This document shows, piece after piece, positions 15,175-17,780 of a DNA stretch of 23,535 nucleotides. The position numbers and the translations under genes are program-made. The stretch is taken from IMG/VR virus record IMGVR_UViG_2859799533_000003, positions 1 to 23,535 of that record, one strand, 5' to 3'. The notes below the pieces were generated by a model. That model ran no database searches, was not told the DNA's origin, and saw only the letters and a list, made by a program, of their open reading frames with translations. Source of the stretch: a virus (lineage: Duplodnaviria; Heunggongvirae; Uroviricota; Caudoviricetes). Positions within the stretch are counted from its first letter, which is position 1. Every line of letters starts with the position of its first letter.

Positions 15175-15446
15175 CAGGAAACTGTCGTTGCATGGATAAA
15201 GGGATGGAATCAAGAGTACTGGATAACGCCATTGCCAGCTTGCTGAGGGCAAAAATACAGAACCCGGTGTCAATAAGTTTTCCTTTTGACACCTCATTTT
15301 TTAACTGCTGTGTAACAGCCTGTTCTGCTGTCAGTTCCCATCTGGCAATAAGCAATTTTTCCTCATAGTCGTCTTCGCTATCGCCATCAGGCACATCGTT
15401 TTTACTTCTTCTCAGATACGATATGTAAAAATCGCGCCAGGCATCC
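15175..15446 (-). pseudogene. nu1: fragment of terminase small subunit (lambda Nu1-like), internal about 90 codons, inverted relative to E-H
   Basis: Minus-strand frame open across the whole inter-IS gap; ...DTGFCIFALSKLAMALSSTLDSIPLSMQRQFP matches recalled lambda Nu1 ETAFCTFVLSRIAGEIASILDGLPLSVQRRFP; cut by IS66 at 15174 and IS629 at 15447. Confidence 0.55.
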
Positions 15447-15500
15447 TGAACCGCCCCGGGAATCCTGGAGACTAAACTTCCTGAGAAAGAGGTAAACAGG

Positions 15501-15826
15501 ATGACTAAAAATACTCGTTTTTCCCCCGAAGTCCGTCAACGGGCAGTCCGTATGGTTCTGGAAAGTCAGGGCGAATATGACTCACAATGGGCGACAATTT
15601 GTTCCATTGCTCCAAAGATTGGCTGTACGCCGGAGACTCTGCGTGTCTGGGTTCGCCAGCATGAGCGGGATACCGGGGCGGTGATGGAGGGCTCACCACC
15701 GCTGAACGTCAGCGTCTGAAAGAGCTGGAGCGTGAAAATCGTGAACTGCGCCGCAGTAACGATATCCTTCGCCAGGCTTCCGCTTATTTTGCGAAGGCGG
15801 AGTTCGACCGCCTCTGGAAAAAGTGA
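15501..15826 (+). pseudogene. IS629 orfA with 1-bp deletion in a G run (frameshift at 15675-15678)
   Basis: ORF 15501-15719 terminates early; the remaining OrfA sequence ([49 protein letters not shown]) continues in the +1 frame to the stop at 15824-15826; restoring one G joins them. Confidence 0.6.
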
Positions 15827-16713
15827 TGCCACTGCTGGATAAGCTGCGTAAGCTGTACGGGGTCGGACCGGTATGCAGTGAACTGCATATTGCCCCGTCA
15901 ACGTATTACCACTGTCAGCAACAGCGACATCATCCTGATAAACGCAGTGCCCGTGCGCAGCGCGATGACTGGCTGAAGAAAGAGATACTGCGCGTATACG
16001 ATGGGAATCATCAGGTATACGGTGTGCGTAAAGTCTGGCGTCAGTTGTTACGGGAAGGTATCAGAGTGGCCAGATGCACTGTGGCACGTCTCATGGCGGT
16101 TATGGGACTTGCCGGTGTTCTCCGGGGTAAAAAGGTCCGTACGACCATCAGCCGGAAAGCCGTTGCCGCAGGCGACCGCGTAAACCGTCAGTTCGTGGCA
16201 GAACGACCTGACCAGCTGTGGGTGGCTGATTTTACTTACGTCAGCACATGGCAGGGCTTCGTCTATGTGGCGTTCATCATTGATGTGTTTGCCGGATACA
16301 TCGTGGGGTGGCGGGTCTCATCGTCCATGGAAACGACATTCGTGCTGGATGCTCTGGAGCAGGCGTTATGGGCCCGTCGACCGTCCGGCACGGTCCATCA
16401 CAGTGATAAAGGTTCTCAGTATGTATCGCTGGCCTACACACAGCGGCTTAAGGAAGCCGGATTACTGGCATCAACAGGAAGTACAGGCGACTCGTATGAC
16501 AACGCGATGGCGGAGAGCATCAATGGTCTTTACAAAGCGGAGGTAATACACCGTAAGAGCTGGAAAAACCGTGCAGAAGTGGAACTGGCCACACTCACGT
16601 GGGTGGACTGGTATAACAATCGACGATTGCTGGAAAGGCTGGGCCATACTCCTCCGGCAGAAGCAGAAAAAGCTTATTATGCTTCCATCGGAAACGATGA
16701 TCTGGCAGCCTGA
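15823..16713 (+). CDS. IS629 transposase OrfB
   Basis: 296-aa ORF with IS3-family catalytic core (HHSDKGSQY ... [16 protein letters not shown]). Confidence 0.85.
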
Positions 16714-16757
16714 GTTCACAGATAAAACACTCTCCAGGAAACCCGGGGCGGTTCAGA

Positions 16758-17780
16758 TTGTTTACGACCCGCCAGTTACTCGGTTATACCGAACAAAAAG
16801 TGAAATTCCGTGCGCTGTTTCTGGAGCTGTTTTTCCGCCGTACGGTGAATTTCCACACCGAAGAGGTGATGCTGGACAAAATTACCGGAAAAACGCCGGT
16901 GGCGGCCTATGTCTCCCCGATCGTTGAAGGAAAAGTGCTTCGCCATCGCGGTGGTGAAACCCGCGTGTTACGTCCGGGCTACGTCAAGCCGAAACACGAA
17001 TTTAATTACCAGCAGGCGGTTGAGCGCCTTCCTGGTGAAGATCCGGCTCAGCTGAACGACCCGGCCTACCGTCGTCTGCGTATCATTACCGATAACCTCA
17101 AACAGGAAGAGCACGCCATTGTCCAGGTGGAAGAAATGCAGGCGGTGAATGCCGTGCTGTATGGCAAATACACCATGGAAGGGGATCAGTTTGATACTGT
17201 CGAGGTGGATTTCGGGCGCTCTGAAGGAAATAACATTGAGCAGGCTGACGGTAAAAAATGGTCTGAGCAGGACCGTGATACGTTTGATCCGACGCATGAT
17301 ATTGACCTCTACTGCGATCAGGCCAGCGGCCTTGTGAATATCGCCATTATGGACGGTACGGTCTGGCGTCTGCTGAATGGCTTTAAGCTGTTCCGCGAAA
17401 AACTGGATACCCGTCGCGGCTCAAATTCACAACTCGAAACGGCAGTGAAAGATCTGGGCGCAGTGGTGTCCTTCAAGGGGTATTACGGCGATCTGGCCAT
17501 TGTGGTGGCGAAAACGTCTTATGTGGCAGAGGACGGTACCGAAAAACGTTATCTGCCGGAGGGCATGCTGGTGCTGGGGAATACGGCGGCAGAGGGGATT
17601 CGTTGCTATGGTGCCATTAAGGATGCACAGGCGTTGTCTGAAGGAGTGGTGGCTTCTTCCCGTTACCCGAAACACTGGCTGACCGTGGGCGATCCGTCCT
17701 GTGAATTCACCATGACGCAGTCCGCTCCGCTGATGGTGCTGCCGGATCCGGATGAGTTTGTGGTGGTACAGGTGAAATAA
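16758..17780 (+). CDS. E: major capsid protein (lambda gpE-like); 5' end abuts IS629, native start and RBS replaced
   Basis: 340-aa ORF collinear with recalled lambda E (FTTRQLL ... SPIVEGKVLRHRGG ... KLDTRRGSNSQLETAVKDLG ... SAPLMVLPDPDEFVVVQVK); ORF begins at TTG 3 bp after the IS629 terminus. Confidence 0.85.
   Translation: MFTTRQLLGYTEQKVKFRALFLELFFRRTVNFHTEEVMLDKITGKTPVAAYVSPIVEGKVLRHRGGETRVLRPGYVKPKHEFNYQQAVERLPGEDPAQLNDPAYRRLRIITDNLKQEEHAIVQVEEMQAVNAVLYGKYTMEGDQFDTVEVDFGRSEGNNIEQADGKKWSEQDRDTFDPTHDIDLYCDQASGLVNIAIMDGTVWRLLNGFKLFREKLDTRRGSNSQLETAVKDLGAVVSFKGYYGDLAIVVAKTSYVAEDGTEKRYLPEGMLVLGNTAAEGIRCYGAIKDAQALSEGVVASSRYPKHWLTVGDPSCEFTMTQSAPLMVLPDPDEFVVVQVK

Follow-up and report, generated by a model that had tools for sequence, protein, structure and literature searches.

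The window analyzed here, the whole stretch of 23,535 nucleotides of the IMG/VR virus record IMGVR_UViG_2859799533_000003, carries a copy of IS629 directly in front of the major capsid gene E of a lambdoid prophage. This raises the question of whether the element was simply inserted at this site or whether pieces of different origin were joined at it, and further whether the capsid gene can still be expressed behind it. The evidence presented below suggests that this IS629 copy is very probably a joint left by rearrangements in a lambdoid prophage that is decaying on an IS-rich chromosome of the Shigella/EIEC type, and not a primary insertion.

An exact look-up of the 340-amino-acid product of E led to the chromosome CP026866.1 (4.68 Mb), to which the window is identical, without a single mismatch in the 16,778 bp available for comparison. 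Within the window and one further locus of this chromosome, IS600, ISSso6, IS66-family and IS629 elements are present, an IS content which is that of the IS-rich Shigella/EIEC type.

The IS629 copy and its ends

The IS629 element belongs to the IS3 family and occupies positions 15447..16755 on the plus strand. It starts with TGAACCGCCCCGGGAATCC, ends with GGAAACCCGGGGCGGTTCA and, with its 1309 bp and terminal inverted repeats of 25 nt, displays the size of ~1310 bp and the imperfect TG...CA inverted repeats of the family. The left terminal repeat (15447..15471, plus strand) reads TGAACCGCCCCGGGAATCCTGGAGA and the right one (16731..16755, plus strand) ends with GGTTCA. The repeat arms as detected were 1 nt longer, which is due to a flanking C/G pair present by chance. 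An annotated IS3-family/IS629 copy in E. coli SY033 shares 98.8% identity with the whole element. This control copy lies in yehX with a clean 3-bp duplication (GACG-IS629-ACGC), has the same left end as the copy in the window and fixes the exact ends of the element.

IS629 elements are characterised by two overlapping reading frames, orfA with a helix-turn-helix and orfB with an rve/DDE domain, which are joined by a -1 frameshift. In the window, both frames lie on the plus strand. Here, orfB (15826..16713) is intact according to the open reading frame list and the gene call, and encodes 295 amino acids with an integrase-core/DDE domain (PF00665, rve). In orfA (15501..15719), an alignment with an intact copy revealed a G5 to G4 frameshift at ~15675-15678, which truncates the product to 72 amino acids. 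Judged by these frames, the copy as sequenced cannot give rise to the OrfAB transposase. The 72-amino-acid orfA allele is found in many other genomes as well.

The left junction reads ggcatcc followed by TGAACC of the element, and the right junction GGTTCA of the element followed by gattg. No duplication of 3 or 4 bp is seen here, and the letters at both ends confirm the unlike 3-bp flanks (tcc and gat) that an earlier, sequence-only reading of this DNA had pointed out. A target-site duplication is the mark of a primary insertion event and is not required for naming an element IS629. Taken alone, its absence tells little, since two unrelated flanks would agree by chance in only one of 64 cases.

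The loci retrieved for this study contain 11 distinct full-length copies of IS629. Five of them carry a 3-bp duplication (ACG, GAC, CAC, GAC and TTC, the controls for simple insertion) and six lack one, among them the copy of the window. A similar ratio has been reported for four genomes of O157:H7, in which matching duplications of 3-4 bp were present at 21/47 IS629 sites and absent at 26/47 (PMC3271280). That copies without a duplication make up roughly half of the IS629 elements in such genomes had not been considered in the sequence-only reading. The decisive evidence comes from the comparison with relatives and reference prophages rather than from the missing duplication.

The left flank is an inverted fragment of Nu1

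The DNA to the left of IS629 (15175..15446, minus strand) is an internal fragment of Nu1, the gene for the small subunit of the terminase. It comprises nt 114-385 of 510, matches the Pfam family Phage_Nu1 (PF07471) and, over its 272 bp, is 98.9% identical to annotated terminase small subunits. Nt 114 of Nu1 abuts the left end of IS629 and the gene reads away from the element on the opposite strand, inverted relative to E. Correspondingly, positions 15175-15452 of the window align in reverse to positions 29137-28860 of the intact prophage locus of E. coli SY033. This alignment reaches 6 nt into IS629; an interpretation of the overlap as microhomology was rejected, as it reflects a chance match at four of six positions (TGAACC versus AGATCC).

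In the reference prophages, Nu1 precedes E by ~6 kb, and both genes point the same way. The earlier claim that the two sides of IS629 differ in origin, Nu1 on the left and E on the right, is borne out by this mapping. The inversion of the Nu1 piece and its reduction to an island of only 272 bp had gone unmentioned. Nt 1-113 and 386-510 of the gene are absent from the locus. Some tiny contigs carrying only Nu1 within the same protein cluster were considered as further cases of an island bounded by IS66 and IS629, and were rejected since native Nu1 sequence continues in them beyond nt 385.

These flanks also bear on the simplest explanation, an ordinary IS629 insertion that afterwards lost its duplication through point mutations or a small deletion next to it. 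IS629 copies without duplications are indeed frequent. Nevertheless, the left flank is neither D nor the start of E but another gene in the opposite orientation, by which this explanation is refuted, and an adjacent deletion is unable to invert DNA. Its probability is practically nil.

Ancestral state of the D-E junction

To recover relatives of the locus, the truncated tape-measure protein H (454 amino acids), which is specific to the lineage, was looked up. This yielded two complete chromosomes, CP026762.1 and CP026795.1, as well as a draft contig from run SRR8186700. In all three, H has the identical truncation and ends at the same IS. The potB-potA-pepT flank is common to the two chromosomes and the window. 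The relatives are colinear with positions 16756-23535 of the window (the draft contig with 16756-22901) at 99.9% identity. Upstream of the position corresponding to 16756, they display the native junction, TTTATGG followed directly by GATTG, and further upstream D, C, B, W and A; IS629 is absent.

Thus, the ancestral D-E junction could be recovered in CP026762.1, CP026795.1 and the draft contig, and the comparison establishes a contiguous A-W-B-C-D-E head module without IS629 at E as the ancestral state. A contiguous target flanked by a 3-4 bp duplication, which would speak for a simple insertion, was sought in these relatives and the opposite was seen. Since they keep D and E contiguous without IS629, the Nu1 sequence on the left is foreign to the E site and a simple insertion is refuted, in agreement with what the sequence-only reading had proposed.

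The early half of the window (663-10215) is colinear with the SY033 prophage up to the SASA esterase region. In the late half, single-base deletions in runs of G or C are present at positions 17789, 18298, 19161 and 19521 in comparison to every comparator, i.e., four in 6.8 kb. These four deletions make FII, U and V appear frameshifted and may represent real decay or long-read errors; the base-level accuracy of the assembly is imperfect.

The Nu1-IS629-E joint has been seen in one assembly only. The open reading frame of the Nu1 fragment was found on a single contig, and the right junction between IS629 and E in 0/5,426 complete E. coli genomes. For the left junction, 13 matches in complete E. 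coli genomes were obtained, which represent another event, in which, as in IAI39, Nu1 is intact and IS629 lies ~275 bp in front of it. Three draft contigs (L007-L009) that start 1-4 nt from the start of E were likewise rejected as instances of the same junction, as they carry many substitutions and still have the native G in front of GATTG; these contigs stem from unrelated lineages and break at a repeat boundary.

This rarity, together with the homopolymer indels, could suggest that IS66, the 272-bp Nu1 piece, IS629 and E were misjoined at repeats in the long-read assembly. However, typical long reads well exceed repeats of 1.3 kb and 4 kb, and a unique island of 272 bp bordered at either side by an exact IS end is unlike the usual misjoin. 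Furthermore, indel errors do not imply structural ones. An artefact of this kind is very unlikely.

A second hybrid element next to the Nu1 island

On its other side, the Nu1 island is bounded by an IS66-family element (11150..15174, minus strand), which contains tnpA, tnpB and tnpC as identified by Pfam matches. The boundary at 15174/15175 is formed by the tnpA-side end of IS66, GTTTACGCTTAC, followed directly by caggaaac. The element is flanked by 8 bp of unlike sequence, CAAAATAC at its left end and CAGGAAAC at its right end. ISSso6 of the IS110 family (11155..12671, plus strand) is nested in the other terminal repeat of the element, 5 nt from the outer end, and is missing from the IS66 of the relatives. 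To the left of IS66 lies the 3' part of an IS600 element (10216..11149, minus strand) with orfB (272 amino acids). IS66 splits this IS600, and the 5' part is missing here.

Two genomes, UAUR01000006.1 and CP026797.1, are colinear with positions 1-15176 of the window at 99.7-99.8% identity, ISSso6 excepted. In both, IS66 is a clean insertion within IS600 with the duplication CAAAATAC on both sides. By this comparison, the IS66 of the window is a second hybrid IS, in which the IS600 flank has been kept and the other flank is now nt 385 of Nu1. Recombination with a second IS66 copy inside Nu1 would give such a swap of flanks. An IS66 copy in the Nu1 of relatives is suggested by one draft contig, which ends near nt ~349 of Nu1; by arithmetic, this equals nt 378 minus the k-1 overlap. 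Look-ups with the tail chaperone G and with TnpC of IS66, aimed at the DNA in front of A in the relatives, led only to unrelated places, as both proteins are very widespread. That a hybrid IS66 without duplication bounds the Nu1 island is an observation which the sequence-only reading did not contain.

Proposed order of events

Similar to IS66, the IS629 of the window has flanks from two separate targets, one of them inverted, as is found in a hybrid IS. We favour a model in which IS629 mediated an inversion between a site in Nu1 and one in E, and in which IS66-IS66 recombination took place in addition. Here, the starting order would be Nu1(1-385)-IS66-Nu1(378-510)-A-W-B-C-D-E, with an IS66 copy already inserted in Nu1 at nt 378-385 and a predicted duplication GTTTCCTG. 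In a second step, IS629 would be present at both nt 114-116 of Nu1 and nt 5-7 of E in inverted orientation, either as two independent insertions that recombined or as a result of a single IS629-mediated inversion, and the intervening segment would be flipped. The predicted product, reversed IS66, reversed Nu1 (385 to 114), IS629 and E from nt 5 onward, has the order seen at 11150-17780.

In a third step, homologous recombination between the IS66 in Nu1 and the IS66 in IS600 would attach the early-gene half to the joint. The lysis genes, cos, nt 1-113 and 386-510 of Nu1 as well as A through D would thereby be removed or relocated. Both a deletion and a large inversion would be compatible with the model for this step. 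The comparisons show the breakpoints, the orientations, the ancestral contiguity of D and E and the swap of the IS66 flanks, and we infer the participation of two IS629 copies, the sequence of these steps and the fate of the lost DNA.

A single transposition is a quite unlikely variant of this scheme. Here, one IS629 at E or Nu1 would have attacked the other site within the same molecule, resulting in the inversion and a second, inverted copy, and the product at the joint would equal the one seen, with inverted Nu1 on the left and E on the right. In contrast, IS3-family elements transpose by a copy-out/paste-in route via a circular intermediate and normally do not produce such inversions. Furthermore, orfA of the window copy is frameshifted, although the frameshift could post-date the event. 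Inversions by intramolecular replicative transposition have been documented for IS26 (PMC4471558).

Our model predicts three reciprocal junctions. The first is TTTATGGGAT joined to TGAACCGCCCCGGG, i.e., D and nt 1-7 of E beside an IS629 end, and the second CTGGATCTGGA joined to TGAACCGCCCCGGG, i.e., nt 1-116 of Nu1 beside an IS629 end. The third would be GACGCTTAC joined to GTTTCCTGAT, with the IS66 end beside nt 378 of Nu1. In addition, the tnpA-side end of IS66 would be followed elsewhere by CAAAATACGCTGTTGC, the missing 5' part of IS600. The chimeric open reading frames expected from them, residues 1-38 of Nu1 followed by DEPPRVSWRVFYL and the IS66 end followed by the Nu1 C-terminus, did not appear in searches that do not reach the rest of CP026866.1. 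Exact patterns of the reciprocal junctions were absent from the genome and metagenome collections searched, which probably do not include the relevant Shigella genomes. Since the rest of CP026866.1 lies outside their reach, these null results are uninformative and do not constitute negative evidence.

The halves of the window might also stem from two lambdoid prophages at distant sites, with IS629 at one end of a large inversion or translocation of the chromosome, rather than of a local flip of 6 kb, that brought the Nu1 island and E together. In the relatives, the two halves are indeed found in separate contexts, as the early half lies beside ycj-like chromosomal genes and the late half adjoins intact head genes. 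Furthermore, the outer flanks of the window, cmoA/yecN and potB/potA/pepT, are presumably not neighbours in E. coli K-12, which would favour such an origin. Large IS-bounded inversions are also typical of Shigella (PMC1550401). However, IS66-IS66 recombination is sufficient to bring the halves together, and a local inversion gives the reversed IS66 and the reversed Nu1 in one step. An origin from two prophages is a rather unlikely alternative. The 98.9% identity of the Nu1 piece to reference genes does not separate it from a local inversion.

The capsid gene behind the joint

On the right, E (16756..17780, plus strand) begins with nt 5 directly after IS629 and lacks its first 4 nt (ATGG) together with the ribosome-binding site. 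From the TTG at 16758, 340 codons are intact. The gene matches major capsid genes with up to 99.9% identity, and its product of 340 amino acids matches the Pfam family Phage_cap_E over the full length (PF03864, E-value 1.7e-65, residues 3-339) and is identical to one encoded by an intact prophage. The native start region consists of GAAAGGAACTGATTTATGG followed by GATTGTTTACG, of which only the latter is retained in the window, and AAAGGAA, the ribosome-binding site, has been lost with the former. This confirms that the first codons of E were hit and that the gene is without its native ribosome-binding site, as had been stated earlier.

The sequence-only reading further placed the resumption of the reading frame at a TTG 3 bp past the element. 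The TTG is correct, but it begins at the third base, with two bases (ga) in between. In the frame of E, a TGA is present at 16698 inside IS629, no ATG, GTG or TTG start lies between this codon and 16758, and the TTG, native codon 3, is the first possible start. A search for a sigma-70-like promoter gave no such site in 16300-16900. An RNA hairpin pairing the IS629 end with the early codons of E was considered and rejected, since, with a z-score of 0.87, it does not surpass shuffled sequence. With neither a promoter nor a usable ribosome-binding site, the suggestion that expression of E now depends on IS-derived signals is not supported.

The genes A, W, B, C and D for terminase, portal, protease/scaffold and decoration functions were looked for in the window and are absent. 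What distinguishes a functional head gene, a native start, a ribosome-binding site and the A-W-B-C-D late-operon context, is lost for E. On the basis of the letters of this region, E is best described as an inert relic without ATG, ribosome-binding site and late-operon transcription, and not as a gene rewired to signals of IS629. Because the remainder of Nu1 and A, W, B, C and D are missing from the locus, the question of its expression is of little biological weight; expression of E by itself would not yield a capsid.

One could argue that the intact frame is translated from the TTG at 16758 on transcripts reading through IS629, and has been kept as a capsid-like protein with a host function. 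This is extremely improbable. Since 99.9%-identical relatives retain the whole head module, the rearrangement is recent and the integrity of the E reading frame needs no selection. The backdrop of such a host function would be a locus in which FII, U and V downstream are frameshifted in the assembly and the other head genes are gone, and the evidence lends it no support.

Comparison with known IS-driven rearrangements

The closest parallel is IS629 of EHEC O157:H7 (Rump et al., 2011; PMC3271280, citing Ooka et al., 2009), where the same element shows the same preference for prophages, with 62% of its sites in prophages or prophage-like elements. In that survey, IS-mediated deletions were reported to diversify strains. 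The window differs from the O157:H7 cases in its Shigella/EIEC-type host, in the proposed inversion with a loss of ~10 kb of prophage and in the participation of a second IS family, IS66.

In S. flexneri, inversions and translocations are bounded by IS629, IS600, IS1 and IS4, and nested cases of several steps have been inferred from IS-sandwiched blocks (Nie et al., 2006; PMC1550401). The present locus is alike in its proposed IS-bounded inversion and in the way the steps are deduced. Whereas the events in S. flexneri span tens to hundreds of kb, the footprint in the window is a 272-bp island inside a prophage remnant.

For IS26, an inverted segment between two inverted IS copies has been described, neither of which carries a direct duplication (He et al., 2015; PMC4471558). 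IS26 differs from IS629 in family and chemistry, and its diagnostic feature is the presence of reverse-complement duplications on both copies.

On the level of the prophage, the locus is an example of the "grounded" prophages, in which the phage is fixed in place and taken apart through insertions of IS elements, deletions and rearrangements (Ramisetty and Sudhakari, 2019; PMC6379469), and no difference of substance is apparent. The joint is ordinary IS-driven erosion of a prophage. This is already known biology and involves neither a new mechanism nor a new element.

The joint illustrates how recombination joints in genomes of the Shigella type are marked by IS629 and IS66 copies that lack duplications, which matters mainly for annotation. 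The appropriate annotation of the capsid reading frame here is that of a pseudogene, truncated at its 5' end, within a defective prophage. Furthermore, comparing swapped flanks with relatives that retain the duplication offers a practical route to the order of IS-driven rearrangements.

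Insertion sequences at and around the IS629 joint

The IS629 copy that separates the inverted fragment of the terminase small-subunit gene Nu1 from the major capsid gene E has a second hybrid IS as its neighbor, namely an IS66-family element at 11150-15174. Here, the 8-bp flanks are unlike each other (CAAAATAC vs. CAGGAAAC) and no duplication is present, whereas the IS66-family copy of the relatives lies within IS600 and displays CAAAATAC at both ends. The element itself harbors ISSso6, a member of the IS110 family, at 11155-12671, whose insertion point is 5 nt into the IS66 terminal repeat. 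This arrangement of ISSso6 in an IS66 end was seen again at many loci of other Shigella/EIEC genomes, and this recurrence suggests a site-specific targeting of the IS66 terminal repeat by ISSso6.

The orfA of the IS629 copy (15501-15719) carries a frameshift, in which a run of five G is reduced to four at 15675-15678, resulting in a product of 72 aa. This allele is present in identical form in 52 index blocks, comprising Shigella and E. coli chromosomes as well as invasion-type plasmids. One of these 52 is a second IS629 copy of the same genome, which is flanked by a clean GAC duplication. Therefore, the allele either arose repeatedly, was disseminated through gene conversion or is mobilised in trans.

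In E. coli IAI39 (9489-13068 of the comparison locus) and in 12 other E. coli genomes, an intact Nu1 is also preceded by an IS629 copy, at a distance of approximately 275 bp. In these 13 genomes the relative orientation of IS629 and Nu1 is as in the window, and a group II intron (ltrA) interrupts the IS629 of IAI39. The IAI39-type insertion is a separate event, which affected a related prophage at its cos-proximal end.

Boundaries and gene content of the prophage remnant

The entire prophage remnant is bracketed by two IS3-family copies at 1-662 and 22874-23535, which are inverted to each other and 99.7% identical. Their ends read TGAAGTGGTCAACAAAAACTGG, and we take them to be IS911. Outward of one bracket cmoB-cmoA-yecN are found, and outward of the second one potB-potA-pepT, with all genes named here according to their Pfam domains; in E. 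coli K-12 these two groups are presumably not adjacent.

Three phage-borne tRNA genes (Met-CAT, Arg-TCG and Arg-TCT; 7235-7484) are found in the interval that separates the Q antiterminator region from the SASA esterase gene, a placement also seen in the intact reference prophage.

Real or apparent lesions in the late genes

Compared with all comparators, four 1-nt deletions are present in G or C runs at 17789, 18298, 19161 and 19521, leading to shortened ORFs for FII (80 aa), U (51 aa) and V (209 aa). These represent either a recent pseudogenisation or homopolymer errors of long-read sequencing. The tape-measure gene H (21124-22873) contains a premature stop, which leaves a product of 454 aa, and is truncated further on, at 22873, by the terminal IS. 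Judged from their presence in both relatives, CP026762.1 and CP026795.1, the two lesions of H are older than the IS629 joint.
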